NCBI GenBank assembly: GCA_965645245.1
Contig: OZ287082.1
Coordinates: 434,001 to 498,000, forward strand
Origin: Massalongia carnosa
Lineage: Eukaryota
DNA length: 64,000 bases
Direction of reading: 5' to 3'
The position numbers were made by a program, and so were the translations under genes. Within the stretch, counting starts at the first letter, position 1. Every line of letters begins with the position of its first letter. Of the stretch, positions 5,760 through 60,684 are shown piece after piece. Below the pieces are notes generated by a model. The model was not told the origin of the DNA and made no database searches. It saw nothing but the letters and a program-made list of their open reading frames with translations.

Positions 5760-6652
5760 ACCAAAGACCACCTATCGAAACACAAGTACCGCAACTTTTG
5801 ATGCTCTAAAACTTTCACAGTCAATTGAACATCTCTTTCTCAGTCATTTGAGCTCCTCCAGAGCAAAAACGGACTCAGATTGAGTGTAGGAGAGCTCTAG
5901 CAAAGCTCCAGCAGAGATTTTCTGCTGGTCGCACGCGACCGACGTGATAAAGCGCGCTCTAGAAGTTGGAAAAAACAACAAATACCAACAACCTCACCAA
6001 AAATCGCTCTTTTTTCTTGTTTTCTTCTGTTCTGTTGTCGCATGACCTTCAATTATCACTATAAAAATTATCTACAAAAATTATCTACTCTCGCGGGACT
6101 GTACAACAACTGTCGCGACGTCAGAGTCTTCTAAAGTTCATTCCTCATTTAAGGTTACGGGAACTTCCGCAAGCACAAATTTTCATAGCATATTTCACGT
6201 ATAATTTTTGCACATTCCATTTTCGGCTTTATAGATCTTCGTTGAACGGCCGGTCAACAGATCACTGAAAAGAAGGGGAAAAACGTCTGGAATAGGATTA
6301 TACTAAAGGTCCTGTTTCAGATTAATCAGAATAGGAAGTCTCCTATTGTCTTACATTGCATTAAAATTTATCTTTATTGAAAAAAGCAAAAAAAAAACTT
6401 TCATTATTTTCACCTATTGTAGTGTCTGGTAAAGGGTTAAATAAGACTTACTGCCTTAGCGAGGAACGGTCTATTTTAACCCGATTAGGATTTATTTGAC
6501 GCGTTATAGTCAAATAAATAGGGATAGGAAAGAAAGAGTCATTTGACCAGTAAACAAACAGGTGTAAATTCTATTCTGACTAGTACGTCCGGGGAAAGTC
6601 AGAATAAATTATTTGGTGGCGATAAAAGGGATATTGCAAAGGCAAAAACACT

Positions 6653-8311
6653 ATGCTCAATCGAAGATTTAACCCGATAGGTCATAGACCAAATCGATTG
6701 ATACCAACAACTCCTCCCCCAGGCCCCCCTCTACAACATCTATGGGTCCCCCCGAGTACTCCCCCGTGCCCCCCCCGAACCGACTCCCCCACGCCATCTT
6801 CGGTAGCGATAATTGGGAGCAACCCCCTAACCGTAGAATCCACGGAGGCCATGGACCAAACGCGAGAATTTTCGTCCGCACCGTCCACACCCACCCCGAA
6901 AACGAAACCTTTTGTCGCGCCATCTGGTGAATTCAGTACCAATCTGCCCATGCCATCATTGAATTCTGATATTCGACTGAGTCCACCAATTAAACGCAAC
7001 AAAAGACGAACATTTGACGAACATTCGATTGAGAGTCAAGAAGTCATCAATCGATCAAAATCGATTCAACTATTGAATACGGCAAAAAATGCATTATTAG
7101 AGTCATTCGTAATAGATCAAAACCCCGAAACGGCTATGGTCATCGATCACGTAAATTCTCTACTGGCAAAGAAATCGATCAAGCCAAAAGCAACGTTAGA
7201 AATGATTGATTGGAAATTGAATAGGGTGCTAGAACAAACTAGCCAAATTCCAGAAACAAAGAGACAATCGGTGCATCCTATACAGACAAAATCGAAGGGA
7301 AATTCAAATGGAAATTCGAATTTGACTCAAAACGTCAACCCAGAAATTCGGAGCGAAACCGCCGGAGTCCCAGGGCCGCAGGTCAACGATACAGCTAGAA
7401 CATGGAGCCAAATGCTCGGAAAAGCGACTGTCAATTCCGAAAATTGGACTACCGTTCCTCGATCCAAAAAAACAAACAAGAACAACAACAATAATTCGAA
7501 TGCGAACAAATTCGATAATACTGACGATTTCAAGGCGATCAAATCTCGACGATTGATAATCACACCGAAAGCTCAAATCGGCGATATCGATTCACTGTTG
7601 CTTCGAAACCAAATCAATTCGCTTTTTAAAGACGCGAAATTGACTATCGTTGTTAACACGGTCGAAAAGTCCAAAACGGGTCAAAACATCGTTCTGACTA
7701 CTAGTCCTGATAACACTGCTGAAGATTTATTGAACAATAAATCAATATGGGAGCATTTATTCGACCCACGAACAGTTCGAAAGGACGAATCGTGGTTCAA
7801 AGTCGTCGCACACGGTGTAAATATTGCAACATTTGATGAAAACATGCAATATTTGCAAGACGAAATTCAAAAGTTCAATTCGAACATGCAATTATGCGAT
7901 GTTCCCAGATGGCTAGCACGTGATCGTCATAACAAGATCAAATCATCCGTTGTTTTGACATTCAATGATCAGAATATGGCCTTGAACGCGTTAAAAGGAG
8001 TCAATATCGCGGGCCGACATTGTGACACGGAAATATTTACCTCCGTTCGTCCAAACACACAATGCATTAATTGTCAAAAATTTGGACACAAGAATTATCA
8101 ATGCAAAAGTCAAGCGAAATGCAGCATATGTGCGCAAAACCATGAAACACGCAATCATGAATGCACAACATGCAAGTCAAAAATTGCTTGTGCACACGCC
8201 GTCGTCAAATGCGCGAATTGCAACAAGAATCATCAATCCAATGATGAAAATTGTGAAATGGTTATATCGTTAAATGTTCGAAAATCGACTGACGAATTAG
8301 CCGCTTTGTAA
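6653..8311 (+). CDS. LINE ORF1 (gag-like nucleic-acid-binding protein with C-terminal Cys/His knuckles)
   Basis: 552 aa open frame; CINCQKFGHKNYQC, CSICAQNHETRNHEC, CANCNKNHQSNDENC. Confidence 0.92.
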   Translation: MLNRRFNPIGHRPNRLIPTTPPPGPPLQHLWVPPSTPPCPPRTDSPTPSSVAIIGSNPLTVESTEAMDQTREFSSAPSTPTPKTKPFVAPSGEFSTNLPMPSLNSDIRLSPPIKRNKRRTFDEHSIESQEVINRSKSIQLLNTAKNALLESFVIDQNPETAMVIDHVNSLLAKKSIKPKATLEMIDWKLNRVLEQTSQIPETKRQSVHPIQTKSKGNSNGNSNLTQNVNPEIRSETAGVPGPQVNDTARTWSQMLGKATVNSENWTTVPRSKKTNKNNNNNSNANKFDNTDDFKAIKSRRLIITPKAQIGDIDSLLLRNQINSLFKDAKLTIVVNTVEKSKTGQNIVLTTSPDNTAEDLLNNKSIWEHLFDPRTVRKDESWFKVVAHGVNIATFDENMQYLQDEIQKFNSNMQLCDVPRWLARDRHNKIKSSVVLTFNDQNMALNALKGVNIAGRHCDTEIFTSVRPNTQCINCQKFGHKNYQCKSQAKCSICAQNHETRNHECTTCKSKIACAHAVVKCANCNKNHQSNDENCEMVISLNVRKSTDELAAL

Positions 8312-11300
8312 TGGCAGGACAGCATTCGTTGACAAACATCGAAAATACACAAAATGTTAAATTTATTCAACATAATTGTGCAAAGTCAACGAATGCAATG
8401 ATATCGTGTTTGGAATATGCTTTATCAAATCAAATTGATATTGTTTTGTTTCAGGAACCATGGACACGAGATCAAAAAACAATATCACATCCGTTCATTT
8501 ACATGTATTATGCCAAAAATAGCGACTTATCGCTCGAGAGTAGCTATATTTGTCACAAATGGCAATTCCAAACTGCAATGCACGCCTAGAACGGATCTTA
8601 TTGACGATTCCGATATGCAAATTATTGAAATTACAATTGATGAAGTTCGAAAAGTGCAGATTTTCAATATTTATAACGAAAAAAGTCAAAGTGATCGAGA
8701 AACATACACGATCGATCGACTTTTAATCCAATTATAACCAAAATCAACTGATCAATTCGTCATCTGTGGAGATTTCAATGCACATTATAACTGGTGGAAT
8801 TCGAAAATTCAACAAGCAATTCGATCAGAAAATCTTGTCAAATGGTTGAAATTAAACAGGTGTAGCTTGATAAACACACCTGACTTATGTACATACTACG
8901 CCCATTCTGGAAGTTCTTCATCTGTTATTGATTTAACTTTTGCAAATTCTAAAATCGAAAATGCAATTACAAATTGGTCAATCGATGAAAACGCAGTCAC
9001 AGGTTCAGATCATGAAGTCATCCGATTTGAACTAATCGCATCTTTCAAAAACTTGACGTCACATGCAACCGCATTATCGAATAAATACAATTGCAATAAA
9101 GCTGATTGGAATAAATTCGCGAAGTATCTAGACGAAAATTCAACCATCTACGAATCACAAGTTCAAAGTTTATTGAATAATCATCAATTCGACGAATCAG
9201 CGATATATTTGCAAAACGTTATCAAAAACGCGGCTGAAATGTTTATTCCGAAAACGAAAATTTGTGCAAAATCGAAAAATTGGTGGTCGCATGATTTAAC
9301 TGAACTTCGAAAAACCATGTGCAGACATCGTCGAGAATGGAAGAATTATCCGTCCGATTTTAGTCATCGGACGTTTAAACATAGTCGAATCGAGTATTTT
9401 CATGCAATTCGAAAAGCAAAACAACAAACCTGGTTGACTTTTCTAGAAAATGCAGCGAATAAAGACGTGTTTACCGCGTATAAATATACTAAACCGCGCA
9501 TATTCGAAAAAATACCGCCGATTCTACATGAAAACAAGCTAAATGTTCAGTTTAATGACAAATGCGATGCATTTGTGTCAGCAATGTATACAAAAAACCC
9601 ATTTATTGACGATAATGAGGAAGATTTATCAAATCAAGACAGCGTAAATGATGATAATTGGCCAGATTTGACCGAAAACGAGTTGAAAAATGCGATTAGT
9701 TTATTTAATCCGAAGAAAGCATGTGGACCTGATGCAATCAATTTTACAATTGTTCAAAAATCGTTTCAATCGTTGAAAAACGTGTTTTTCATGATTTATT
9801 CGAAATTCATTCGAATCGGTTATCACCCGTTATGCTGGCGGACAGGACTCGGTGCAGTTCTGAAAAAACCTAATAAATCGGACTATTCGTTTCCAAAATC
9901 ATATCGAATTATCACATTATTAAATTGTCTTGGTAAAATTGCTGAGAAAATCGTTGCAAATCGACTAGCCTACTTCGGCGAAAATTCGAATTTACTCGAT
10001 ATCGAACAGATGGGCGGACGCAAAAATCATTCTGCAATTGACGCAGTAATGAACGTTGTTCATGATATTGAAATTGCAAATAGAAATAAAAACGTCTTAT
10101 CATGTTTATTACTCGATGTCAAAGGCGCATTTGACTTTGTCTCGATTAATCAACTGCTAAATGTTATGAAAAAGCTGAAATTATCTCGCATAATAATTCA
10201 ATGGGTCAAGCATTTCATGACAAAGCGATCGATCAATTTGATATTTGATGAAAATTTAAGCAAAACATATTATGTCGAATCAGGAATTCCACAAGGCTCA
10301 CCAATCTCGCCTATTCTATTTCTGATTTACATTCGTCACTTGTTTCCGAAAATACGAATGAAATTCAATGCACATTCTCCCAGTTTTATTGACGATGTTG
10401 CAATATATGTCGAAAATAAAACTGCAAAACAGAATTGCAAAGAAATCGAAATCATAGTCAAAACGGCCTTTGATTGGGCCGCATCGAATAATGTCAAATT
10501 TGATGACGATAAATCCGAGCTGATTCACTTCGAAAAGACAAGAAATGTATCGAAAGACACATTGGAATTACCAAACGGGACAGTACTAGAACCAAAAAAT
10601 GTAGTCAAATGGTTGGGCGTCTGGTTAGACCGAAAACTAAATTTCAAAAAACACGTCGAAACGCGGATCTCTTCTGCGAATCGATCGTTTTTTGCAATTC
10701 AGAATTTGATGAAATCCGAATGGGGTCTGAAACCGACCGCATGCAGACAGCTCTATATGTCATGCATTATTCCTATTTCGGACTACGGCTCAGAAATTTG
10801 GTATAATGGTCAAAAGAAATATGAAAAACTATTTCAGAACCTACAAAATCAAATGATTCGAAAGATTTTAGGAACTTTCAAAACCACACCTATTCAGGCG
10901 ATGGAAATTGAATCACATGTTTTACCAGTTAAACTTCGATTATTAATGAAAAATCAAAAATACGCAATTCGATTATTGAAGATTGCCGAAAATAACCCTA
11001 TTTGTCAAAGAATTCCAAACACATATTCGATAAAATTCGAAAATATCGGTTTTGACACAAGTTTATGGAACAACAAATATGCCGAATGGAACGAAGACGA
11101 AAAACAAACAAATAAACGACATCCTAGTCAGCTTATTCGCGTTCTTCATTCCGTTTCCGATATAGTTCACAAAACGGATGAATTTGAACAATCAAATCAT
11201 TTTATTAAACCTTGGAAATCGCCTTGCAAAATCAAATTTCAAATCGAAAATACAAAGGAATCTGCTAAATCAAGTTATTATTCGACCTTATCCAAAATTA

Positions 11301-12325
11301 AATCAATGAACTCCGATAAATCCCGAGTTTTACTTTATACAGATGGATCGAAAATCGAATTTGCAACGTCTGCAGTCACATTTGCGCCAATTATGAGGAA
11401 TTGGAGTAGTATTATCAATAATTTTGATCGATTTATCGAAAAAGATTGTCTGATCAAGTATCATACGATTTCGAAAAGCTGGAAATTAAGCAAACAGTCA
11501 AGCATTAAAAATGCTGAACTGCATGCAATTTTACAAGCAATGAAATGGGTCTATAAATTGTCTAATACTAATATTTTATCGAACTTGGAAAAAACGATTT
11601 GGATTTTTTCTGATAGTATAAACGCGATAAACGAAATTCAGAACTTGAAAAATCATATTTTCGCAAGACAAATTCGAAAGCTCGCAAAACGCTTATTTGA
11701 AAGCAATTATCAGGTGATTTTGCAATGGGTTCCGAGTCATTCGAATATTACCGAAAACGAAATTGCAGACAAAATAGCAAAGACGGGCCATAATCAAATC
11801 CTAGTCGAGTCCTCGGCTATAACATTTGATTATGTAAAAGATCAAATAAATCAAAATATGCTAACCACATGGACGAATCAATGGCAACAATGCAAATCAA
11901 AAGGCAAATACTACGAGAAATTCGAAATGAAACCTGGCATATCGAGATTTTATTATTTATCAAACAACTGTTCCAAATTGATATTTGCTACTATTATGCA
12001 ATTAAAATTCGGACACGGCTATTTTCGATCATATTTACATCGATTGAAAGATTATAATTCGTCAAAATGCTCAAATCGATGCAATCAACGACAAACGCCA
12101 GAACACTTGTTATTGAATTGCATTCACTATTTCGATGAAATTCAAAACATGAAACAAACCATCGATACTACGATCAACTTGAATATGTTGTTTAATACAA
12201 AAATCGGAAATGACATTTTGATTAAATTCATTGTCAATAACAAAATCGCGACTAGAAAATGGATACTAGGTCAGCTTGATGACGAGATTTTCGAAACTGG
12301 AGGTTGGGGAGAGATCGAACAGTAA
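8311..12325 (+). pseudogene. LINE ORF2 (APE endonuclease - RT - RNase H - C-terminal Cys/His), disrupted in the APE domain
   Basis: QHN..QEP..GDFNAH..SDH; GIPQGSPISP and SFIDD; YTDGS..AEL..FSDS..WVPSH..NEIAD. One-nucleotide insertion near 8494 relative to copy D and TAA at 8735. Confidence 0.93.
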
Positions 12326-12566
12326 AATCAGAAACGATTTATGCTGAAACATTCACGAACTTACAAAGAAAAATTTTAAAATCGATATTCTTCGATTACT
12401 ATAGGTTGTTACTAACACGGAGTAAAAATGGGGAAAAATTGACAATACATAGATGGGTTATAAAGGGTTGATTTATTTGTAATATAGAAACATATCCTAA
12501 AATAGTTTAGTGTCATAACCTTAGGTTGAATACACTTAATGAATAAATAAAAAAAATAAAAAAAAA

Positions 12567-47182: not shown

Positions 47183-48818
47183 ATGGCCACTTTTGCTAAA
47201 AAGAGGCGGTACACCGAAGCAGAACTTTCGCAAGACGATCCTCATTCACCACCTTCAAAGAGATTCAAACCGCCGCCGGCCTTCTGGGACAACTTGTCCA
47301 AGATCCCATTGACACGCTCGGCGCTAGAGGAGCTAAAACGAAGGTACACTGGTCGGTCTTGTATACAGCTCAAAGTCAAGAAGCCACGTACTCGAAGCGC
47401 TGTTCGCGAGTTTAAGCAGAAAGCTCAACCCATCGTACCTGTTTTTAAGTATCTGCTAAAGGCTCCTCAAGCGGGTATAACTCAGCTCAAATCCTTCGCT
47501 AGACAAGGTGGCCCAGACTTGACCAACCTGAGAGGGGTATGTAATATCTGGTATTATTAATTAGCGTCTGTTACTAAACTCTCTCTAGTTTTCCAGGCAT
47601 ACCATGAGTTCAAGTCGGTCTGGTTCAAAACGGCGAAGGTCAACGGATCCTAGTTCGGCGACTAGCAAGAGTAGGAAATCTACAACACCTTATGATCGTG
47701 GGTTTGAACAGAATCTGATCGATCATGGTGTGTACTTGGACAACAGAGCACGAACGCCTGAGAACTGGGAGGAAATAAAAGAGAGATTAGCAATTCCAAG
47801 ATCCTCACTCTCACCCTCTAAATTCTCCGAGACCGCATTTAAGGCATTTCGGGCAAGCGATTTCCGAGCGAAGGATGAAGACGATGTAATGATTGATATC
47901 GTTCCAGTTATCTCTGGTATACACCAGGACAATCACTTCTCAGCAAGAAAAACAAAGTTTGGAAACTTAGATCCACTCACAGATGGCACTATAGCCCCTG
48001 CTAATCCGGATCTCTTCTATGGTACTCGCCCTGAACAGCTTGATCGGCGGATTCGCGACAAGCTTAGCGGCCATATCATTCCGTCGACAATGGAAGATAA
48101 ACCAATGGCGCCAAGTTTCTACTTTGAAGCGAAGGGGCCAGATGGATCTGCTGCAGTCGCAAGAAGACAGGCTTGCTATGATGGTGCTGTAGGAGCGAGG
48201 GGCTTGCAGAGTCTTCAGTCATACGGGCAAGACGAATCAATATACGATAACTGTGCTTATACCATTACCTCAACCTATCATGACGGCACACTTAAGATGT
48301 ACACTACCCATATTACCCCACCGGTAGGCCCTGGGAAGCCGCCAGAATATCAGATGACTCAGATCAATACTTGGGGCTTAACTGGTAACGCTGATACCTT
48401 CCGGCAAGGTGCTACAGTGTTCCGGAATGGCCGAGACTTAGCTAAGGAATGGCGCGAAGGATTCGTCTCAGCTGCAAATGAGAGAGTAGATTCTCTAAAC
48501 ACAGAGCCACTAGTTCTCGAATCGTCAAATCTCAGCCGTCCCTCAGACACTACAGACACACACCTCGCCGAAGAATCTGAGGCCTCGGCTGACGAGTCTG
48601 CTTCCAGTGCGTCCTCGCATCCCGTTAAGGAGGCTGAGACCGTATACACCTCATTCTCGCACCCCGATAGGGATGACATCTCGGCTGATGAGCTCGACCA
48701 TACCTCATACGTGATGGCTTCTTTCAAGCGTCCTGGCATGGGATCGAAGAAGACAGATTCCAAGGATCCGCGCTATGGTGCTGGCACATCTAGTCGGAGG
48801 CGTCAATCCAAGAAATAA
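47183..48818 (+). CDS. uncharacterised fungal protein with restriction-endonuclease-like motif; intron 47537-47588
   Basis: GTATGT..CTAAA..TAG intron joins the two ORFs in frame; PDLFYG...FEAKGPDGS..ARRQACYDGAVGARG. Confidence 0.75.
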
Positions 48819-50344
48819 ATTGGGATGATCGGATGGACTTGTCGAAAGAACTTATACTTGCTGCGAATAATAATTGCAGAACGGTGCTGACATGAACTGT
48901 AACTCAGCGCAATAGCATTGTTCACGTGCTCGTAAATGAAATCTATGTTTGGCTGTCCATGCTCGAGGCCACATGGAAACTTGGCTCGCCTAACGACCTT
49001 TTGTTATCAATCAAAGCCAACTTCAGCTCCTAACGACACTAGGGGACTCATACTGACCAAACTCTCAATCAATTACTTGGTGCCTTGAGTACGTGTCTAA
49101 AGATTTAATGTGCTTAGATTGGAGCTGTGTTGATTTTCTGGGTCTTTCAAGGGGTAAGGAGGGTTGCATACGCTAGATTTATCCTTAAAGGTTGGACAGG
49201 CAGTGAGTCATGCTACCCTGTATGCCCCAACTTACTTAGCCGTCAATGCACGCATTGAGCTGGATTGTGATTTCTTGTTGGTCAAACTTGCGGCAAGGTT
49301 TGTTTGACCCTAGAAGGTGTTCGCTGCTAAGAACGCCTGCGCGGGCGTGGAATGTAGGATTATCCCTAGCAGAAAATGGGGGGAGGGATGTGGGCTCTAT
49401 TTTCGAGAGTCTAAGCATCGAAGTTACGTTGATGTCAGTAGATAAGAAAGCTGTGGAGGGTCCGAGCCAACATAAGGGCCTATCCGGGCCGCAACCTGCC
49501 TGATAGAATGGTTAGTATCCTTTGGACCGATGCACTCCTTGGGAGCGTATCGGGTAAAGGCGGCTATTTCTTCGGAGACTAGGTTGCCAAGGGACGCGAT
49601 CTCAATCAACAAACAAGAGTTAATCTATCCCTTAAACTATAAGATGACTACCGAGTCTTTCATCAACATCTGCCTCTTCTCTCTCTCCAGCTTACAAGTT
49701 ATATGTAAGTGGAAGCTTCGGACTGATATACGTATCATCATACTAATACACGCTTTGTCTCCTCAGAAAACGAACTCAACCTATCGAACATTATGCAATC
49801 CAAAAACATCATGCTTATCAACTCTGTCGCCGCCGACCAACCTGACCAGATCTGTTATGATGAGGAAGGCGGCACCAGCCCCTGCCCAAAGTGTGGAGTC
49901 GAGATTACAAACACCCAGGAACGCCCTTTCTGCAAGTAATATCGTCTTAAGCTTGTAAGTTCCGCTCAATTCCTATATTTTCTACTACCTATACTCAGGG
50001 GAACAGGATCAAACATCTTCTATGGGAGGCTGGAAGACATTAAGTTGCAACTAGAGCGGTGCCTATATAGAGCTCGAGGGAGCTGTCTACTAGCTAGTAT
50101 AACTTATTTATTCAATTAACCTTTTATTACTATTGTTAATTTTCATCATACTCAAATTGACTACGACATTATCTACCAGGACTAGTGACTGTAATTATAT
50201 TTATGATTTGTCTGATGCCTCGCCTTCTAGTTTATCTCCTGCTTCATCTACCTCTGATAGTTCCATTAACAAAGATCTGGTATGCTTGGGCTTCGACTTC
50301 GACTCTCGCGTCATATCCTTGAAACTTCCATGTTCCTGAGTATA

Positions 50345-51055
50345 TCAGCCTTCGGTCTTTAAAGAGACAAGGGACCGTACCAGGAGAAATGCACGAATTA
50401 GAGGGCCATCAGTCAATTTCTTCATTTGTAGGCTGGAACCTGCTGGATCTTTGTAGAAAGGTGCCTCAAACCATTCTGGGAAATACCCCCCATACTCCCA
50501 ATCTATTATTGCAAGGATCTTCAGCGTCTGTGGATGGACAATGATATTGGATTGTGAAAGATCGTTGTGACAAAAAACGTAGTCTTTTGTTTTTGATGGC
50601 TTTGTTGTCCACTGTAGAAACTCCCAGGCGTTATTCAGAATTCGGGGCGGCGGACATACAATGCCGCTTGGGCCTCCCATGCGGTTGGACTTGAGGTCTC
50701 GTAACGCCTTCCGATGCTCTTCAACCTCCTCTATAACTTTACTTTGATCTTCAGGACATAGCTCTTGCATATCAAGTCCATCAATACGCTTCGTCCATAA
50801 GTAAAAGCATCCGTCTTTGGTATAAGTATCGAGGATCTCAGGTAAGGGAATATTCGTCGCCTGCCTAAGGAACTGGATTGTCGCAGCTTCATTTCGGAGT
50901 CTATTTTCGCAGTCATATGGAATATATACACGATCTTTAGATTGTGCATACTCGCTCGGCTTTAGGGTTCTTTTCAAGAAACGATCTTTGTAGCGTCTGT
51001 AGTGCTTGTCAGTGACAGTGAGCTGCCACTCTGGGCTGACATCCATAGCTTCCAT
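50345..51055 (-). CDS. APH/choline-kinase-like phosphotransferase
   Basis: NEAATIQFL..IPLP, CHNDLSQSNIIV, IIDWEYGG; the 3' end may be spliced. Confidence 0.85.
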   Translation of the reverse strand: MEAMDVSPEWQLTVTDKHYRRYKDRFLKRTLKPSEYAQSKDRVYIPYDCENRLRNEAATIQFLRQATNIPLPEILDTYTKDGCFYLWTKRIDGLDMQELCPEDQSKVIEEVEEHRKALRDLKSNRMGGPSGIVCPPPRILNNAWEFLQWTTKPSKTKDYVFCHNDLSQSNIIVHPQTLKILAIIDWEYGGYFPEWFEAPFYKDPAGSSLQMKKLTDGPLIRAFLLVRSLVSLKTEG

Positions 51056-51319
51056 GGAGTTGCGAGCTAGATAATCAGAGTGTGACGCATTGAATAGGCG
51101 TCAATAAGGGGGATGGCGCAGTCGTGGTGGTCGCGAGTAGCTACACGTGGATAAGGTCAGCCGGTATACGGCAACAATCATCAGGATTGCCCCGTTTGTA
51201 ATTTGCCTAAGGCCACTGTCCAGCTTGAGCCTCATGAGTAAAGTAAAATCACGTGCTCGGCTACCTCGATCCGAACATTTTCCCTGTTTGCATTCTCGTC
51301 TGTCGTTACAATCATTGCG

Positions 51320-52949
51320 ATGACTTCTCAAGAATTTACCCTTCCACTTCTACGAGGTAATACTACATTAGAAGTTGCCCTTGAGCAGGAGGAAAACATA
51401 CTACTTGACTTGGCATACCCTAAGCAGCGAGTGGATTTCTTTGTATGGCTCAGGCGTCATCGCAGAGACATCGAAGATACTGTGTCATATCATCTTGGCC
51501 TGACTCGATCAGAGACATGTCGGGTTGGAGAAGTGAAAGAGTGGATACACGGCAGCTTCAATGTTTGCATACCCGTTCACATCGATAACTGGAACAAGCA
51601 CCCCGGAAGACGAGTCCTCATCAGATTCCCTTTACCCTACAAGATAGGAGAATCGACACATCCTGGCAACGCAGAAGAGAAACTCCGCTGTGAGGCTGCT
51701 ACATATATTTGGATACAAGACTACTGCCCCGATGTTCCAATATCTTACCTATGGGGGTTTGGATTTGCTGGTGGTCAAAGTGTATATGACTCAAATGCAT
51801 TCTAATGTTTACTCCTAAAGCTAATTCAAACTTGTTTAGTTTACCAAACCTCAGAACGCACCTTTCAAGCCTAGATTGTTTTGGTACCTTCGAAGATTTA
51901 TATCATCATTGTTCGGATCTACCTTACACGATCGTTATATAAACCACCGCCGTCAATGTCTCTTAGAGCATGGATACCTGGTCATGGACTACATTGAGAG
52001 CACAGGCGTGAAGATACTTTCGGAGACATGGGATGAATATCGCTATAGCCAAAGTCAAAGGTTGAACCTCTTCAGAGATCTATCTCGTATCATGCTTTCC
52101 ATGAGTCAATTCTCTCTGCCTCGTATTGGATCTTGGACACTGGACTCAAATGGGGTCTTACAGCTTACCAACCGTCCTTTAACCCTACAGCTTCAACAAT
52201 TAGAGAACGGAGGCATTCCCACCAACATCGATAGGAACTTGACTTATTTAGCAACAGATTCGTACTATCTCGATCTCTTATCTTGCCATGATAGGCGTTT
52301 AGAGCATCAACCAAACTCTTTGAACGATGAGAGCGATGGCCGTGCCCAGATGGCAAATCTTACTATCATGCGGGCGCTTCTATCGCGTTTCACGAACCAA
52401 GAACTTCGTCATGGACCATTTCTTTTCAGGCTCACAGACCTCCATCAAAGTAACATCTTTGTGGACGATGATTGGCATATCAAATGCCTAATTGACCTTG
52501 AGTGGGCATGCTCACTGCCGGCTGAGACATTACATCCTCCATATTGGCTGACTAGTCGTCCTGTAGACGCCCTTCTCGGTGAACACCTCGATGCCTTCAG
52601 CAAGGCACATCACGAATTCATGGAGGTTTTCGAAAAAGAGGAGAAATCTCTTCCTCATATGAATGGTAATAGTTCGTACCGGACAGACATAATAAGGACT
52701 GGTTGGAAGATCGGAAACTTTTGGTATTTTGAGGCCTTAAATAGTCCTAAAGGGCTGTATAACATTTTCCGTGGTCATATTCAGCCAAGGTTTGCATCAT
52801 CTCATAATGTTGATCCGGAATTCCCACGGATCCTGTCAGAGTACTGGACTGAGGATTCAGAGGGGTTTATAAACGCAAAGGTTCGAGATAAGGAGGCGTA
52901 TGAGAAAAAGCTGCGTTGGACTTTCGAAGATGCTTCTAAGAACATCTGA
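51320..52949 (+). CDS. APH-like phosphotransferase family protein; intron 51782-51839
   Basis: HGSFNVC, EKLRCEAATY, TDLHQSNIFVDDDWHIKCLIDLEW; intron restores the frame. Confidence 0.88.
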
Positions 52950-53098
52950 AAGCCCGCTTTCAAACAGCTATTGTCATGCAGGTGGTCTCAAAAATTGCAA
53001 AATAAGATAGATTTGAGATTGCCTAAAAGTCTACCTATCACCATGTTTGTGAATCGCATCGGCTTGCTAAGCAACTCATCTCATATATTCCTCGCTCG

Positions 53099-53338
53099 CT
53101 ATAGCCCTCGTTTACTCCTAGCGTGATCCCCTGAGGATGAGAGTTGATTCATTGTTTTCCCATCAAGGAGACCTCTGGTAACAGCTGCTCGATCCTCGTG
53201 TATCCTCTCTTCCTCGGCAGCGGCGGCAGCCTCAGCGGCAGCCTCAGCGGCGGCTTCAGCGGCGGCCTGGTCAGCGGCGGCCTGGTCAGCGGCGGCCTGT
53301 TCCTTGGCGGCGCGCTTTGCGTCTTCTTCGCTAGGCAT
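53099..53338 (-). CDS. small Ala/Glu-rich hypothetical protein
   Basis: 79-aa ATG ORF with low-complexity AAADQ/AAAE repeats. Confidence 0.35.
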   Translation of the reverse strand: MPSEEDAKRAAKEQAAADQAAADQAAAEAAAEAAAEAAAAAEEERIHEDRAAVTRGLLDGKTMNQLSSSGDHARSKRGL

Positions 53339-53791
53339 CTTAAGCTCTATACTCGAATCATCAGTCTAGTATTGGGGGCAAGTTATGTAGACTCTCTAAA
53401 TACATCGGAAAGTCCTCTGAGGCTGATGAATAGGGGGGCGAATTTCTGACCAGGTCTCTGTAATCTTTGAAGGCGTGAGGTAGTTTCGGGGAAAATCTGC
53501 GAATTTGCTACTCCTGAGAGGTTCTGGTGGGAAGTAGTCCCCGTTATAACATAGTTGAGACACGGGGCAATCTCTATTTGGAAGTGGCAGCATATACCTC
53601 GGTGAGATATAAATCTTGAAGCATGACTTATTGCGGCACTTTCTAAATGCGGCAACGTGATATGTGTTTATGCATGACGAACTGCCACAGGGAACGGCCC
53701 GAGCCAATGTTAGTTTGGCAGCTTATCATCGGCTACAGCACCAAGTCATTTGACACGCATATATATACGCAATGTGCTATCGAAAACAACT

Positions 53792-54371
53792 TTTTTATTT
53801 TATTAATTCATTAAGCGTATGCATCCTAAGGATATGACGCTGTGACTGCTATTTATGTACATAAACAACAATCAGGAAGTGGAAACCTGGCCCCTAGGGT
53901 AAAACCACTCCCTTGTTTCATGTTGAACGCAACAAGATCGTTCTTCTACCACGCGGTGCATACACCCAGATCTTCAAGCGCTAGGAATCCTATAGACTCG
54001 ATGAACTAGACAGTGTATTTCCACACGTTCGACGAACGTTCTCTCTCTTAAACGTTTTGATTCAATGAAGGAAAGACTGGCCGTGATCGAGGGCAGATCG
54101 TGGTGTCGTATAAATGAAGGTGTATAAGTGTGGCCATTCTGAATGAATGGGCTTTTTCGATGTGGTGAAAGGCTTCCGCCTGAGGGGTGTGGCCATTCCG
54201 AATGAATGAGCTTTGTATGTGTGCCTTCGAGGTAACGAATGATCAGTAGAGACGTTGATCGTTCAAATGGCCACCAAGGTGGACTTCCGCGTTGGCGATG
54301 ATCAGATATTGGCCACCTCCGAGGAGGTGTTGATAGCCTGCACCACGTAGAGGTTTCTGACCCAGCAGGCC
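53792..54371 (-). mobile_element. non-coding SINE-like retroposon with 5' HDV-like ribozyme and LINE-type 3' tail
   Basis: 13-bp TSD atcgaaaacaact (53779-53791, 54372-54384); A-rich tail; 3' stem-loop homologous to the LINE tail. Confidence 0.85.
54300..54371 (-). ncRNA. HDV-like self-cleaving ribozyme (predicted)
   Basis: GGCCTGC(P1) TG GGTCAGAA(P2) ACC(P3) TCTACGT(L3) GGT(P3') GCAGGCT(P1') AT CAA CACCTC-CTCG-GAGGTG(P4) GCCAA(J4/2) TATCTGATC(P2'). Confidence 0.8.
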
Positions 54372-55239
54372 ATCGAAAACAACTATTCACGTTCTGCGGT
54401 CACCAATGAAATGAATATCGGTGATTCATATATAGACTTCCTGGGATATCTAACGCTGCCATTCCGATAGGCAACAAGGGTTGATGACTCACGTTACTGC
54501 ATTTAGAAATGGCCATTACAAGTCTAGCTCATTGGCTATAATCCTTTTCGTTCACCGAGTGGAGGTGCGTACGATATTCAGTTGCTTTGATTGGATGAGA
54601 TGGAAATCGGCGATGCTCTGCATTTGGTTACGGTTTGCGGCCCGGGCCGTTCTATAACAGTGATTTGCTGAAATCCGTCGAACCTGAGCGACCTTGGCTG
54701 GAATCATCAAATCATGATGCGAGCCTTTAATATACAGAGTTAAATGTACTTTTCTGCATATAGCCCAGACGGCTACTGAACAATGACGTGCCCTGAGTCA
54801 TCGGCCCTGTGGGAGCTTCTGCTTGTTGGAGGCCTGCAAATGTATTTATTATGATGCACAGTACAGCCAATAAAGAAACGAAGGGGCGAAGGCAGAGACA
54901 CCGGGAACGGCCCTGGCCAACACTAAAGAGATGGCAGACTTGGTTGTGTAGGTGGGATTCGATTGAAAGTCGACGGCTCAAACGATTCCCACCATCCTCA
55001 GGCACCACACGGTAACAGCCGTCAGCACTTCGGCCGCGACAGATCTCTAACTTGCGCGCAATCACCATCCATCGATGCAAGACAACTCGCCCATGTACGC
55101 TACGCTCATCTTTTCGGATGCTTCTTGTCATTGAGCGCCTTTTTTCCATTCCGTGGATATATTGCCTTACCCGCATTCGTTATCTCTGGAAGTCGCGTCT
55201 CGCCTACATTTTCAGACGTGGCCCTCTCTCCCAGCTCAC

Positions 55240-55500
55240 GCTCCGGTTGACTGCGACAAGTGCAATCGGTCGTTTGGCAGTCGACAACAACACCTGAATT
55301 CTCCAGCTCATGCTCCAATGTGCAACGAATGCGACCGGTCTTTTGGCAGTCAGCAGGCTCTTAACCAGCACCTAAGCTCCCCAGCTCACGATCCGGTATA
55401 TGAGTGCGACGAGTGTGATCGATCGTTCGGTAGCCAGGAGTCCCTCGATCAGCATCTTAGCTCCCCAGCTCACGCTCCGCTACACAACTATGACTATCCT
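55240..55500 (+). pseudogene. C2H2 zinc-finger repeat gene fragment
   Basis: Three Cx2C-x-RSFGS...QHLxSPAH units; no coherent start or end. Confidence 0.7.
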
Positions 55501-55742
55501 GTAGTATTGGCTCTTAGTGCCATAAATTTCCAAAGATCCCGTACAAGAGGGCCCCCCTCCTCAACCAAGGCCATAAACATAGCATCTTCCGTCATTACAT
55601 CGGAATTGGCAACAACATATTGACAAACCAACTCTCTCAGTTTATCAATTCCATTATCCAAATCAGGGGTCCTCTCATCTGTGTATGTGTACCGCGCAAG
55701 ATCGACGATGTATTGAACTTTCAGTGCGTCGAGACGAAGCAT
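55494..55742 (-). pseudogene. fragment resembling the C-terminal helical part of fungal BTB/POZ proteins
   Basis: LARYTY..TPD...DKLRELVCQY...FMALVEEGG.LVRDL. Confidence 0.5.
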
Positions 55743-56002
55743 GCTTAGCGTTTGGTGGATAGGACGCTGAACACTTGGAGAATAGCCTTCAAGCTAGCCT
55801 GCTAACATCACTAACCCACGAGAATCCATAGAGATAAGTCAGAAGAGAGAGGCCAGAAGCCAGAAACAGCTGATATAAGGGCTCAAGGAGTTAAGAATTT
55901 ACTTTAAGAAATGTACATGTATATTAGTAATAGTTGCCCTATCGGGTTAGCCGCCGGGTGTTAATAAATTGTGTGTGTGTATATCTAGAGGCGCATACAA
56001 AT

Positions 56003-58941
56003 TCATACCAACTGTATATTTCCAATACTTGCTTCGCCGTCTCTAACATCTGCTACGGAAACCTTTCCCCGCAGGACTTTCTGTGCCCACACGAGACGAG
56101 TCCATTTACTTGGTTTCTCTTGCTCCTTCCCAAAGTTAAAGGACTTAAGCCACCGATGAGTCTGCCGCCTTCTCTCTAGTCGTGCCACAAATGTGATTAT
56201 CTGACACAGACACAAGGTCACAAAAATGGCAATAATAACGACAAAAGCTAATGGCTCGCCGCCCGATGTACCTACGTATATGACGATCGCTAGGATCCCG
56301 TATAATAACAAGACAAAAGCAATAACAAGCCATTGGGAGAGCACCCGCATCTCTTTGCTAGGTAGAGGTGAAAATGGCCGCCTGCGTAATAGATGGTTGG
56401 GGTCAAGAGTAGCTAGGGTCGCCAAGACGTTAGAACCTCTGTGCGTTGGATTTAGGAGGTCATCACCTACCAGCCTGCATAACAACTCTCCGCTGAGATG
56501 GCAAAAGTGTGAATTCAACTATAGGGATATCGTCAAGTGTTTGCGAGGATGCTTGTTTCCATTGAGTAGGATTCCAAATTTTGAAGGGCCGGTCGTAGTT
56601 CACAAGGATATCGTGCATAGAGTCCTCAAGCCCTTCTATGATTCTGAACTGAGCGCCAACTCCTGAGATACCACTTATAGACGTCGATCCCCCTGATTTG
56701 TCGATGAAGAGATATAGACGTTGTGCCGCCTGGCGAGCACCGGCGGACTCGTTCTGACTGTATTCGTCGAGTTGGATAACCAGGTCGAGGTCACGGGTGT
56801 AATCGACCAAGCGAAATTCTTTCGGCTGATTGGTCGAGTCTATCTGTAGGGCAATGTGATCAAATGACCCTTGCGCCATGAGCTCCAGGTCAAGAGTGTA
56901 GTAACGATCATTGGAAAGACGCAAGCGAGGGCCATCGACAAGCTTCGACCCAGAGATCGTCTGAGGGACCCAACTATCTTCCGCATAATCAGGATAAACA
57001 TCACGGACTAAGCCTGGCGTGTATAGTATGGACGCAGGCAATTCCTCGCAGCTTCGGATCAGGAGGTGGAGACGGTTTTGAGTGGCGGTCTGGGCTACCC
57101 GTTGGCTGTCAAAGTCTAAGATGCTAGCTAATATAATCATAGGATCACCAGTCTTCGTGGCAGAACGTTCTATAAGATTGTTCCAAGCGAAGATTAATTG
57201 AGAGACTCTTGAAGCGTCTATCCTATAATGTTTCTCGAGTTCCAGGCCTTGACGACGGTCATCTCCCAGGATTTCTTTCAGGGTAAGTGGAACAGACTGT
57301 TTGTATTTCGCTAGCAGTTTTGATCCAACAGTTAGGTCAGGTTTGTGTCCACTTCGCCAGTATCTCGATGGTTCAGGCAGTCCGGTCATCTTCCACAGGT
57401 CGGACATGTTCAGTGAGCAATCGCAGAATTTTAACCGTAACACTCGAGCTATGCTTCCTTCTTCGAGGGTCCATGCTCGTTGCATCCATCGTGAAAGGTA
57501 CACTCGCGCAGCGATTTCGTCAAAGTCAGATTTTCTTGCTATATGTTTTTCAAGCCCGGAATCAATGACTATAACTTCGAGAGCACCTCCATACACTGGC
57601 GTAATATGTCTGAGAGATTTATTTTTCATCTTCTCTGCCCAATCAAGAGTTATCGGGCCATGTGAGAAGGTATTGGGAATGCACAAGGTGTCCAGCCAGA
57701 AGTAGAGGCGGTTATCTGTGCGACGGATCAAGTTGGCGAAAAATGCAACAAACTTATCGATGATAAATACTTCACCTTCGATGCTTTTCCGTCGCTGCAG
57801 CATGATCGACGTCAAAGCCTTGAGCTGGCAAAGCCTGATTGAGTTTGAGCTTTTGTTACCCATACCGTCGGACCAAATATGGGATATTGCAAAAAAGGGC
57901 TGTTTCCTATCCCAAGTATGAAGCTTCAGATCGAGGTTCGAAGCCAGTATGATTGCACAGAGCTCAGGGGTTGAGATCGGGCATTCGGGACATGTCAGAT
58001 GCTGTGTACTGAGATCGTGCAGACGAGGGTACTCGATTCCAAGCGGTAGGTCGTAGGCAATGCATTTCTGTTCATTTCGACATCCGCTGTGGTCTGAAGA
58101 GATGTTGGAGATGCCATGAGAATCAAGACTGTCTCTTGGAGCAAGATTCGAAAGTAATGCCAGGAAGTTGACGGTGCAGTAATCAAATGTAGAGCAAACC
58201 GAGAGTGCGGATGTTGGACACCAGCCCCGAGCCTCGAAAAGCCTGCAGAGCAGTGCCACTGGTGGGGATAAGGGCTCAAGACGCTTTCCTCCGGGAAGAG
58301 GTACCAAACCTTGCTTTCGGTTTCTACGTGCCACTTCCTGAAAGCATATACCACAAATTGCTTTTAGCAACAGCTTCCAACCAAGGATAGGCTCGTGTAT
58401 CACGGTCGCTATAATTGTAGACGTCCTTCACTATTGACAAGAAGATCTTGATAGAGAGTAGGACTTCCTCGCATCGCGGACTTGCTATGCCGGTGAAGGC
58501 AATGTCGAAACGGTCGCTGGCCTCGATAGCTTTCCCAAGGGTCGCCAAAATATCCTTCTTTCGGGTCTTTGTAACATTGTTATGCGCTTCATCGAGAATA
58601 CCAGGAAGATCGGGTTCTGGGCAGCAAATCTTTCCAAAATTGATGACATCCCCGGCATCAGACACGATAGCCGATTTTAGGTCGCGAATAGGAATTCCCG
58701 AAACAAAAGATAGCAGGCTGAACAGGAGCCAGCATTGTGCAATAGCCAATGCGTCATACTCTTGCATTCGAGTTACGTGAAAGATTTGTCTGTCCCTCTC
58801 GAAAGACTGCTGGTCTTGATCGAAGTCAACTCGATTCTCAAACCACTCAAACGATACATCGTTGTTGTGGTAGAGAGGTGACTTCAGAAACGGTATTGGA
58901 TTTGCTTCAAACCCTTGCCTAGGCTTATATAGTGACTCCAT
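56003..58941 (-). CDS. HET-domain protein with C-terminal transmembrane segments; frame break near 58330-58400
   Basis: AISHIWSDGMGN, FWLDTLCIP, VYGGA.EVIVID, SRWMQRAWTLEEG; probable intron at ~56470 into a hydrophobic last exon. Confidence 0.8.
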
Positions 58942-59211
58942 GATGATTTGGTAAAAGTGTAGCTCGTAACGTACCGCCTAGTGTGGATTTTCGGCCCGAT
59001 ACCCGAGTTCAATTTCGAGAGGTGGGCTAGCTCCGCTACTTATACCCCCTTATTGCGAAAATGAGACCTAATATATCAGGCAAGGAAAACAACACCCTCA
59101 CGACTTCTGTAATCCCTATCACTGCCACTGCCACCCCCCGTCAAATCATGATCGTTTGGATAATAGCACTAACTGTGTCGAATCCAAACGGCTCCACTAT
59201 TGACAACAATT

Positions 59212-60534
59212 ATGACGCTTCTCCGCCGAGCGTCGTTTGACCCAGGCATACCATCTGGCGAATTTTCCGAGCAATGGACGTATCCAGGTGATGTCTTTTC
59301 AGTTCTCCTGATTCTTGGAGGCGATGTTGTGAGAAGGGCGCTTGCCCAGCTAGCGGGCACTGGTTTGACGCCAGTAACTTTTTCATTTGGTCTGTATTTT
59401 CAACCCCTAATGGCATTTGCTCCTAAATTGTGCGCTGACAGAATCGTAACAGGATGGGTCGCCTACGCCGTCACTGCCGTCGTCTCTGCCGTTGGAGAGA
59501 ACAAACTCATGCCGCTGCCGGATTGCACGTGCAAGGTCATCAACGGCGAGTCGAGTTATGTGCGCGACAATACTAGCTGGATACTGGGACGCATCATGAG
59601 AGATTACGAGAACTGGATGGATGATGCGATACGCGTGCGAGTCAAGGAGATGATTGAGGAGAGGTACCAAGCCGACTCTGAACGTGCCGAGAAGAAAAAG
59701 CCCGGTTCAGAAGTAAACATAACTCGTCGCACACAGGCAGGGCTCTGTGTGTCCTTCTATCGCGCCGGGCAGGCTAAAAAGGGTGCAATCTACCCTGATA
59801 AGGTGTATCTCAGCGGCTTCTTTGTTGCTCTGCTCCAGCTTGGCGTTGCGGCTACTCCATGTGGAATATGGGGAGACTGGTCGATTCTGCTCATCACTGC
59901 CGCTGGCATTGGACTGGCGTTCGTATCTGGCTCGCTCTCTCAATGGCGGAAGGAAAAGTGGGCATGTCGAACTGACCATGGTAAGACCGTGGTATTGACG
60001 CGCGGAAACGGTGCCCAGCATGCCATTGTTATCAGCGACTCCGACGGGATAGGTCTTGATCTAGAAACTCTAGCAGCAGGCCAGGCCAATGTCGATGTGT
60101 ATACTTCGTGTTCTTCCCGCATCCTCATTGGAGTACTTGCGGCGTTCTGGGTTTTGCTGCTTATATCTGCATCAGGCATTAAGAAAAACACCTGGTTTCT
60201 TCTTGGCGTCGGAGGTATTGGCATAGTTCAAAACATCTTCGTTGCGGGCTGGCACCGGAAACCCGAAGCTTTTGGCTTGCCACTCCACTACCAGGGCGTC
60301 ATTGGGATGCCCAAGGTGATGGATGCACTATACGAAGTCGAGAAGGCGCACCCTGGGCTCGGCTTCAGTATGCGCGAAACATTTTTCCCTGGCGGCATGC
60401 TCAACGATGATGAGAAGAAGGAATGGGCACGGTGCGAACAAATAGTGAAGGATATCAAGGCCGCGAAGGCTGCAACGAAAGCAGCATCTCAGACACAAGC
60501 ACAGCCGGTTTCAGTTGTTCAGACTTGGGATTAA
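59212..60534 (+). CDS. multi-pass membrane protein of unknown function; in-frame 63-nt intron 59390-59452
   Basis: Long ORF with several hydrophobic helices; GTCTGT..GCTGAC..CAG intron gives PVTFSFG|WVAYA. Confidence 0.75.
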   Translation: MTLLRRASFDPGIPSGEFSEQWTYPGDVFSVLLILGGDVVRRALAQLAGTGLTPVTFSFGLYFQPLMAFAPKLCADRIVTGWVAYAVTAVVSAVGENKLMPLPDCTCKVINGESSYVRDNTSWILGRIMRDYENWMDDAIRVRVKEMIEERYQADSERAEKKKPGSEVNITRRTQAGLCVSFYRAGQAKKGAIYPDKVYLSGFFVALLQLGVAATPCGIWGDWSILLITAAGIGLAFVSGSLSQWRKEKWACRTDHGKTVVLTRGNGAQHAIVISDSDGIGLDLETLAAGQANVDVYTSCSSRILIGVLAAFWVLLLISASGIKKNTWFLLGVGGIGIVQNIFVAGWHRKPEAFGLPLHYQGVIGMPKVMDALYEVEKAHPGLGFSMRETFFPGGMLNDDEKKEWARCEQIVKDIKAAKAATKAASQTQAQPVSVVQTWD

Positions 60535-60684
60535 TGAGCTTGTTAGGTCTAGCAGAAAATGCCTGGGCTGTCCTTGTACTTAAATGAGAGGGACAGAAAG
60601 TCGAGGCTAGTTTAGCCTTTAAATATGTAATACCTTAGTTGAATTGTAAAATAAATCCATACTCTGGAAACGCAAGGCTATAAA

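Follow-up and report, generated by a model that had tools for sequence, protein, structure and literature searches.

The sharing of a covarying 3′ tail between a LINE and a SINE is well established (PMC3747384, PMC3472496), and the stringent pairs on record include UnaL2/UnaSINE in the eel, LINE1-1_ZM/ZmSINE in maize and, in fungi, Mg-SINE/MGR583 and SINE2-1_BG/Tad1-24_BG (PMC3747384). Some metazoan SINEs carry ribozymes of the hammerhead or HDV-like kind, and hundreds of intergenic HDV-like copies are unassigned (PMC6765202). As for ribozyme-headed parasites, in the literature examined they have been described so far only for the rDNA-bound SIDEs of Drosophila and for trypanosomatid elements. 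The Luptak-lab surveys reportedly include a few fungal HDV-like ribozymes. No precedent for a fungal SINE headed by a ribozyme was found in the portions of the literature consulted, a matter on which HDV-like ribozyme surveys and Repbase could bear, and ribozymes are not mentioned in the text consulted of a Blumeria transposable element paper (PMC10648671). Centromeres made of transposon clusters were reported for 34 of the 49 fungi of a recent atlas (10.64898/2026.09.17.752431). The subject of the present analysis is a dispersed fungal parasite at whose 5′ end, judged by its sequence, a self-cleaving ribozyme seems to stand in for a promoter head, and whose presumed helper is devoid of one.

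The window (the whole stretch of DNA analysed, 64 000 nt) is a nest of retroelements. It contains, at 53792..54371 on the minus strand, a 580-nt non-autonomous, SINE-like retroelement flanked by 13-bp target-site duplications (TSDs), the 5′ copy of which (54372..54384, minus strand) is flush with the first base of the element, G1, while the 3′ copy is at 53779..53791 (minus strand). Genome-wide, the family has about 110-115 copies of 500-800 nt (109 heads and 115 tails with two mismatches at most); the variation in length is accounted for by a 59-bp tandem unit, which is present in about 1.5 copies here (54128..54214, minus strand) and in higher number in other subfamilies. A sample of 59 distinct copies, biased to the best-scoring matches, was fetched; 55 of them have a full 5′ end, and TSDs, mostly of 13-16 bp, are present in 54 of these 55. 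Young copies are 97% identical, which points to recent activity. The element is short, interspersed, TSD-flanked, non-coding (its longest ATG frame has 44 codons) and ends in a LINE-like tail, as does a canonical SINE (definition taken from PMC10886601), but it lacks the Pol III head of such an element, with its internal boxes and its origin in tRNA, 7SL or 5S RNA: ARAGORN found no tRNA gene in it, there was no tRNA, 5S or 7SL among the Rfam matches with E<=5 over 53000-55500, and a simple pattern search revealed neither an A box nor a B box. What an earlier note on this DNA called a SINE is not one of the canonical Pol III type, a point which that note missed. The last 42 nt are the only stretch common to the short element and the LINE of the window (E 3e-9; next best E 0.47). 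A SIDE derives both its ends from autonomous elements via internal deletion; here these 42 nt alone match the resident LINE and no ribozyme-headed LINE was found among the loci examined. The short element works like a hybrid SIDE, the donor of its ribozyme not having been found among these LINEs.

Two sets of sequences that might have belonged to other elements turned out to be members of the same family. Tails with a TAA loop, considered as those of the true helper LINE, all belong to a longer subfamily of the short element, and heads with distant or absent tails, considered as ribozyme-headed LINEs, are copies that are decayed or interrupted by other elements. We also noted a copy with intact TSDs from which the entire 3′ hairpin is deleted (L277; G000:C9, about 513.3-514.1 kb), and two copies with identical flanks that lie on different contigs and are interrupted by different insertions (L271 and L272; C10:1.69 Mb and C16:1.02 Mb); the latter two belong to a longer segment that is duplicated or mobile.

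The 3′ end of the short element forms a bulged hairpin of 28 nt (53814..53841, minus strand), recognized by pattern, fold, alignment and covariance model; its 28-nt counterpart in the LINE is at 12509..12536 (plus strand; pattern, fold and covariance model), and further LINE-type hairpins are found at 2500, 14951, 15230 and 16015 on the plus strand and at 15485 and 18196 on the minus strand. A degenerate pattern retrieves eight copies in the window, seven of LINE type and one of SINE type, against none in 100 shuffles, and 468 in the genome (52 Mb, 25 contigs), where the reversed-pattern control gives 0; the covariance model ranks the same eight window sites at E <=4e-8, the next site being at E 0.18. 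Both the LINE and the short-element tails fold into the same bulged hairpin (z -1.7 and -2.3, respectively), folding energy alone being weak evidence for such a structure. The two hairpins differ at 5 of 28 nt. Four of these differences make up two compensatory pairs, T-A to C-G and A-T to T-A from LINE to short element, that keep Watson-Crick pairing exactly as the earlier note had claimed; the fifth, an A to C change in the 3′ internal loop, is present in the sequence printed in that note and was left uncounted there. According to a post hoc simulation, the probability that five random substitutions produce at least two compensatory pairs is 0.001-0.003. In its first form, the hairpin finding adds a good new case to a rule already known, that of shared, covarying LINE/SINE tails. 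Other details had to be amended. The TTA loop, said to be fixed, is TAA in 20 of 100 listed SINE-type tails, and ATA, ACA, GTA and longer loops occur in related LINEs. The CAT bulge was also said to be fixed: as a sequence it is, since CATA is invariant in all 14 rows of the alignment described below, but as a 3-nt bulge it is not, since the T most likely pairs with a G (a U-G pair in 12 of the 14 rows) and leaves a 2-nt CA bulge.

The earlier note had proposed that covariation be examined on a larger alignment, and there it proved significant. The LINE set consisted of the best 80 of 460 confirmed metagenome loci plus two fungal-type LINEs (L161 and L162) from contigs of metagenome-assembled prokaryote genomes (MAGs), 82 in total; the other 58 loci of the prokaryote genome scan, which are weak RT matches, were left out. 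The C-terminus of ORF2 is reached in 52 of the 82 loci and about 40 extend to the A-rich tail, each of these carrying one of two related bulged hairpins; one metagenome LINE insertion (L151/L158) is without the 3′ lower stem. One row was kept per family (single linkage, 60% amino-acid identity), near-duplicates of one large family as well as L087, L104, L110, L142 and L147 were dropped from the tail alignment, and six tail start points were set by eye; alignment with MAFFT, which is blind to structure, comprised 12 family rows, the window LINE and the short element. The 13 LINE families show 35-47% ORF2 identity to the window LINE. Pairing is maintained in 92.1% of 140 cells versus 80.3% after shuffling (0 of 500 shuffles reach the observed value, and likewise 0 of 500 for the score), two-sided changes are seen at 7 of 10 pairs (1 of 500 shuffles) and in 23 cells (0 of 500), slid registers pair at 18-42%, and RNAalifold, unaided, returns the same 10 pairs. 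When mapped on the ORF2 tree of the 13 families, 15 changes of both partners fall on the same branch; when the partners are permuted the number is 3.5 +/- 1.9, and 0 of 100000 permutations reach the observed one, these being approximate Fitch counts. For the second tail type (9 rows, 7 families), 97.8% of the cells are paired and 8 are two-sided (0 of 500), the number of covarying pairs taken alone being not significant (122 of 500). Among the covariations of the tails, many consist of double transitions (C-G to T-A), a pattern that RIP-type mutation could mimic; double transversions, fewer in number, are found in the short element's own pair, in L146 and, for the second tail type, at column 7-33. 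At pair 16-25 there are 4 two-sided changes against 0 one-sided ones. The CATA on the 5′ side and one C in the lower stem do not vary in the alignment, the apical loop does.

Taken together, these data support the hairpin as a conserved RNA structure, with covariation over 13 LINE families, and they show the comparative signature of a stringent LINE/SINE pair, i.e. a conserved, covarying 3′ stem-loop that lies in the only stretch common to the LINE and to its dependent element. We infer that the reverse transcriptase recognizes the hairpin, which would then serve a group of Tad-like fungal LINEs with RNase H as the recognition element at the 3′ end of their RNA. A covariation-supported motif for so large a group is a ready substrate for studies of RT-RNA recognition. 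On the side, L161 and L162, fungal-type LINEs with a hairpin tail, come from records titled Pedobacter and Lapillicoccus MAGs, and they are probably eukaryotic contamination.

At its other end, the short element begins with a sequence of 72 nt (54300..54371, minus strand) that fits an HDV-like ribozyme, an assignment based on a match to Rfam model RF02682, on a descriptor match and on the coincidence of the element's 5′ end with G1. Set against the defining features of these ribozymes (PMC4836649), the sequence accommodates a nested double pseudoknot with a P1 of 7 bp, a wobble between G1 (54371) and U37, a P2 of 7 bp, a P3 of 3 bp, a 7-nt L3 with the U and the G of the active-site reverse wobble, a P4 hairpin and, in J4/2, a C at 54312 that is putatively catalytic and precedes C-A-A, as the descriptor has it. 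For P1.1 there is one possible pair, U-A, the next position being C-U; it is weaker than the C-G pair of characterized HDV-like ribozymes. The RF02682 model, which was built on a bacterial family, gives the head 26 bits at an E of 0.043 and so leaves it short of the gathering score, which is 44; the two best Rfam matches, both below cut-off, are HDV ribozyme families and cover the first 72-75 nt. Searching the genome with RF02682 gives nine matches at E<=10, six of which belong to the short-element family, the best at 33.6 bits and none above the cut-off of 44; of the 14 control genomes, 7 yield weak matches as well. The pseudoknot does not emerge from minimum-energy folding. A loose ribozyme descriptor finds about 8 unrelated matches in 1.37 Mb, so that it would match base 1 by chance with a probability of about 1e-5. 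Viral contigs contained no exact match to the ribozyme core or to the tail pattern.

The strongest evidence for the ribozyme is positional: the TSD abuts G1. In 49 of the 55 full-length copies it ends at G1 (0 to +2), flush in 29 and 1-2 nt into the GG in 20, an overlap that is due to microhomology; the end is elsewhere in 5 copies, and the TSD was not found in 1. G1 itself is retained in 54 of the 55 copies, the base at -1 is random, and the same 5′ boundary (54371) is seen in contigs from four public runs with four organism codes. The cleavage site predicted from the fold coincides with the first base of the element. Changes diagnostic of subfamilies affect 2 of 72 columns in the ribozyme, 2 of 47 in the tail and 54 of 453 in the body (p 0.02 by Fisher's test for the ribozyme against the body), with private substitutions distributed evenly; such an avoidance of the ribozyme and the tail is to be expected under selection on source copies. 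The short-element copies compared show no compensatory change inside the ribozyme, because the family is young.

The presumed helper family is represented in the window by a Tad-like LINE of about 6.8 kb (5762..12560, plus strand, the start being approximate), which has 99% identity with copies whose ORF2 frame of 1343 aa is intact. Its ORF1 (6626..8311, plus strand) has a Cys/His-rich C-terminus and shows no Pfam family above cut-off; its ORF2 frame (8738..12325, plus strand), interrupted near the start in the window copy, specifies an APE endonuclease, a reverse transcriptase and an RNase H. Neither a chromodomain nor another targeting domain was detected in ORF1 or in the C-terminus of ORF2. 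We call it Tad-like and set it beside Tad1 because of this layout of two ORFs and of the APE, RT and RNase H domains; the nearest named ORF2 relatives are from ascomycetes (Lasallia, Sclerotinia and Pyrenophora), and these homologues make a filamentous ascomycete the most likely host. In many copies the 1343-aa frame is uninterrupted, at 98-100% identity. The 16 full-length loci fetched around ORF2 matches lie mostly inside other LINE copies; TSDs of 12-15 bp could be identified at 6 of the 16, and the 5′ junctions are ragged. As a side observation, a conserved hairpin-rich stretch precedes ORF1 in the window (4170-4400 and 6420-6640, plus strand, and also about 19290-19480); it is common to the 5′ UTRs of two LINE families that are only about 69% alike, and could be an IRES-like or promoter element.

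Several searches bear on the identity of the helper. No HDV fold was found at the 5′ ends of the LINEs of the window, Rfam revealed no ribozyme in 10 of the 82 related LINE loci, and the descriptor returned only loose, chance-like folds in these loci. Genome pattern searches yielded, among the matches listed, no LINE with the tail or the head of the short element (tail types were counted by pattern among these matches); there was no ORF2 match upstream of 20 non-LINE tails that were fetched (19 SINE-type and one orphan), nor within 17 loci of unusual head-tail spacing. The ORF2 search met with only the resident family among the 54 scored of 1517 candidates, a sample biased to close copies. Among the matches listed and these 54 candidates, the resident family is thus the only candidate helper seen.

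The LINE and the short element are distributed very differently. LINE copies form one block per contig, blocks being 30-128 kb in size and amounting to 3.1% of the genome: 69 of the 69 exact LINE tails listed for contigs C1-C6, 53 of the 54 ORF2 matches and all but about 5 of the 70 tails of a second LINE subfamily are inside blocks. Exceptions are a second block on C7 and singles on C10, C19 and C20. The block of the window is AT-rich, with a GC content of 32-35% versus 46-49% in the arm. Apart from the exceptions on C7, C10 and C19, the copies are confined to one block per chromosome, as for centromeric retrotransposons, and since there is one block per contig and transposon-cluster centromeres are common in fungi, we infer that the blocks are centromeres. 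The short element is scattered over the chromosome arms; none of the 100 heads listed is in a LINE block, where 3.1 would be expected if they were uniform (P 0.04), and it is certainly not enriched there. Of the 19 LINE copies examined in blocks, 5 are 5′-truncated to <700 nt, the size of a SINE, so that being short is not in itself enough to free an element from the blocks, and removal by length alone seems an unlikely explanation.

A few other features of the genome deserve mention. On C7 (G000) there are two LINE blocks, as well as short-element insertions at mirrored positions (0.12/2.63 Mb, 0.526/2.157 Mb and 0.55-0.67/2.11-2.13 Mb for these features) that agree in their flanks (L073/L075) or in a rare variant (L237/L238); this is an inverted duplication, an isodicentric chromosome or a haplotype mis-join. 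Three orphan tails of 50-70 nt (L250-L252, at C2:1237578, C8:226210 and C9:895246), two of which are outside LINE blocks, have LINE-type stems and the ancestral internal loop and are possibly relics of an older LINE subfamily. In the window, a tandem repeat with units of about 50-60 bp (2130-2640) adjoins a copia-like element and is interrupted by a 5′-truncated LINE tail with its TSD. On the arm side, near the short element (47589-63355), are a DUF7924 gene, two kinase-like (APH) ORFs, a weak HET-domain ORF and a MULE/FAR1 transposase.

In our view the short element, being non-autonomous, probably parasitizes the resident LINE family, with the hairpin as the recognition element, by a mechanism in five steps. 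The element, having no Pol III head, would be transcribed by read-through from a host promoter. Its HDV-like ribozyme would then cleave 5′ of G1 and free the element RNA, as the fold and the boundary suggest, which would give the precise 5′ end. The 3′ end would be formed, probably by ordinary cleavage and polyadenylation, at or after an array made of a TGTA-containing motif (53854..53861, minus strand), a possible 3′-processing efficiency element, of the hairpin and of an AATGAA motif with the A-rich tail (53792..53813, minus strand). The LINE ORF2 protein would bind the hairpin through its shape, the invariant CATA and the internal loop, to the exclusion of the apical loop, and target-primed reverse transcription would generate the TSDs, which at 12-16 bp are observed to be like those of the LINE. 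Lastly, the LINE would accumulate in one nested, AT-rich, centromere-like block per chromosome, while the element mobilized in trans would insert across the arms; the two distributions are observed, their cause is conjectural. A broader proposal, which we put forward as possible and with less assurance, is that of a class of fungal SINE-like elements with an active HDV-like ribozyme where the Pol III promoter head would be, joined to a recognition hairpin common to the clade of Tad LINEs; these elements would be mobilized by a centromere-homing LINE and yet escape its centromere targeting. If this were true, centromere targeting would act in cis, through the LINE RNA, the ORF1 protein or co-translational assembly, and would involve more than the endonuclease and RT alone. 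The genome offers a natural paired experiment on centromere occupation by retrotransposons, with the same presumed enzyme and opposite distributions.

Other readings of the two ends of the element have to be weighed. One is that the hairpin serves mainly in 3′-end processing or stability, by positioning TGTA and AATGAA or by blocking decay, and that the RT recognizes the A-rich tail only, as in LINEs of the relaxed type. In favour of it, 14 of 21 elements have a TGTA within the 60 nt upstream of the hairpin, as against 10 of 63 control windows, the hexamer most often seen upstream of the poly(A) sites of Aspergillus oryzae is AAUGAA (PMC3111234), and one TSD-flanked copy has no hairpin. This single copy may nevertheless be explained by skipping of the RT or by a later deletion, whereas the invariance of CATA in 14 of 14 rows inside the hairpin, and the fact that the hairpin is the sole LINE-derived part kept by the parasite, fit recognition by a protein, stem-loop recognition being moreover the described rule for stringent LINEs (PMC3747384, PMC3472496). 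We find this reading improbable and retain recognition of the hairpin by the RT. As to the 5′ end, the HDV-like sequence could be a catalytically dead relic that now acts as an internal promoter, with transcription starting at G1, in the manner of the trypanosome Pr77 DNA. The weak P1.1 and the sub-threshold Rfam score would agree with this, as would the precedent of Pr77, which is both promoter and ribozyme, and of the SIDERs, some copies of which do not cleave (PMC4035085). Yet all the positions of the catalytic core and all the helices fit the descriptor, the head region is conserved between subfamilies, and a P1.1 of a single pair occurs in the L1Tc ribozyme, which is active (PMC3185411), that of CPEB3 having one G-C plus U-U (PMC4836649). 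A dead relic is, for these reasons, quite unlikely in our opinion, and we keep to a ribozyme that would be active; the roles of promoter and ribozyme are not mutually exclusive.

It could also be that the helper is a different, non-centromeric and ribozyme-headed LINE, rare, unassembled or recently extinct, and that the likeness of the tails reflects common ancestry only. In the 3′ internal loop the short element has a C, as do most relatives, and the resident LINE an A; the three orphan tails combine LINE-type stems with this C, and the different genomic distributions of the two elements could point to such a helper. Against such a helper stand the ORF2 search, with its bias to close copies, as well as the pattern matches listed and the 17 loci of odd head-tail spacing, none of which disclosed it, and the absence of an HDV fold at the 5′ ends of the window and metagenome LINEs examined; furthermore, the 97% likeness of young copies speaks for recent activity. 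We therefore judge that another helper is unlikely, and compare the pair formed by the short element and the resident LINE with the systems described so far.

By its ORFs of about 560 and 1340 aa, its APE-RT-RNase H order and its A-rich tail, the LINE resembles those of the Tad1 clade, such as Paracoccidioides RtPc5/PbNLR1 and Tad-CgT (PMC4427930), from which it differs in being concentrated in one block per contig. These blocks are like transposon-cluster centromeres in that there is one gene-poor cluster of nested transposable elements per chromosome; the fungal example of the atlas is LTR-based (10.64898/2026.09.17.752431), whereas the presumed centromere clusters here are dominated by a LINE that has a dispersed parasite. 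As in the stringent pairs, the short element has only the 3′ tail in common with its LINE and shows compensatory changes in the 3′ hairpin, but, unlike the two fungal pairs, which are tabulated as tRNA-promoter SINEs (PMC3747384), it has neither a tRNA or 5S head nor A and B boxes, and its hairpin can be traced over 13 + 7 distant LINE families. The trypanosomatid NARTc, RIME and SIDER, with their Pr77 or L1TcRz sequence, come close to it as dispersed short retroelements that have an HDV-like head of roughly 77 nt and a P1.1 of one pair (PMC3185411, PMC4035085); their autonomous partner bears the same 5′ hallmark, whereas the partner LINE here has an unrelated, ribozyme-free 5′ end. Finally, the R2 SIDEs and the R2/R1 hybrid SIDEs of Drosophila are likewise non-autonomous, lack a Pol III promoter, carry an HDV-like ribozyme at their exact 5′ end and have a 3′ end recognized by a LINE protein, a property which the present element would share (PMC3414825). 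They are specific to rDNA sites, are co-transcribed by Pol I and have their ribozyme from R2 (PMC3414825), while the short element is fungal, dispersed in about 110 copies and has a ribozyme whose donor was not found; in the R2/R1 hybrid SIDEs, as here, head and tail come from different sources (PMC3414825).
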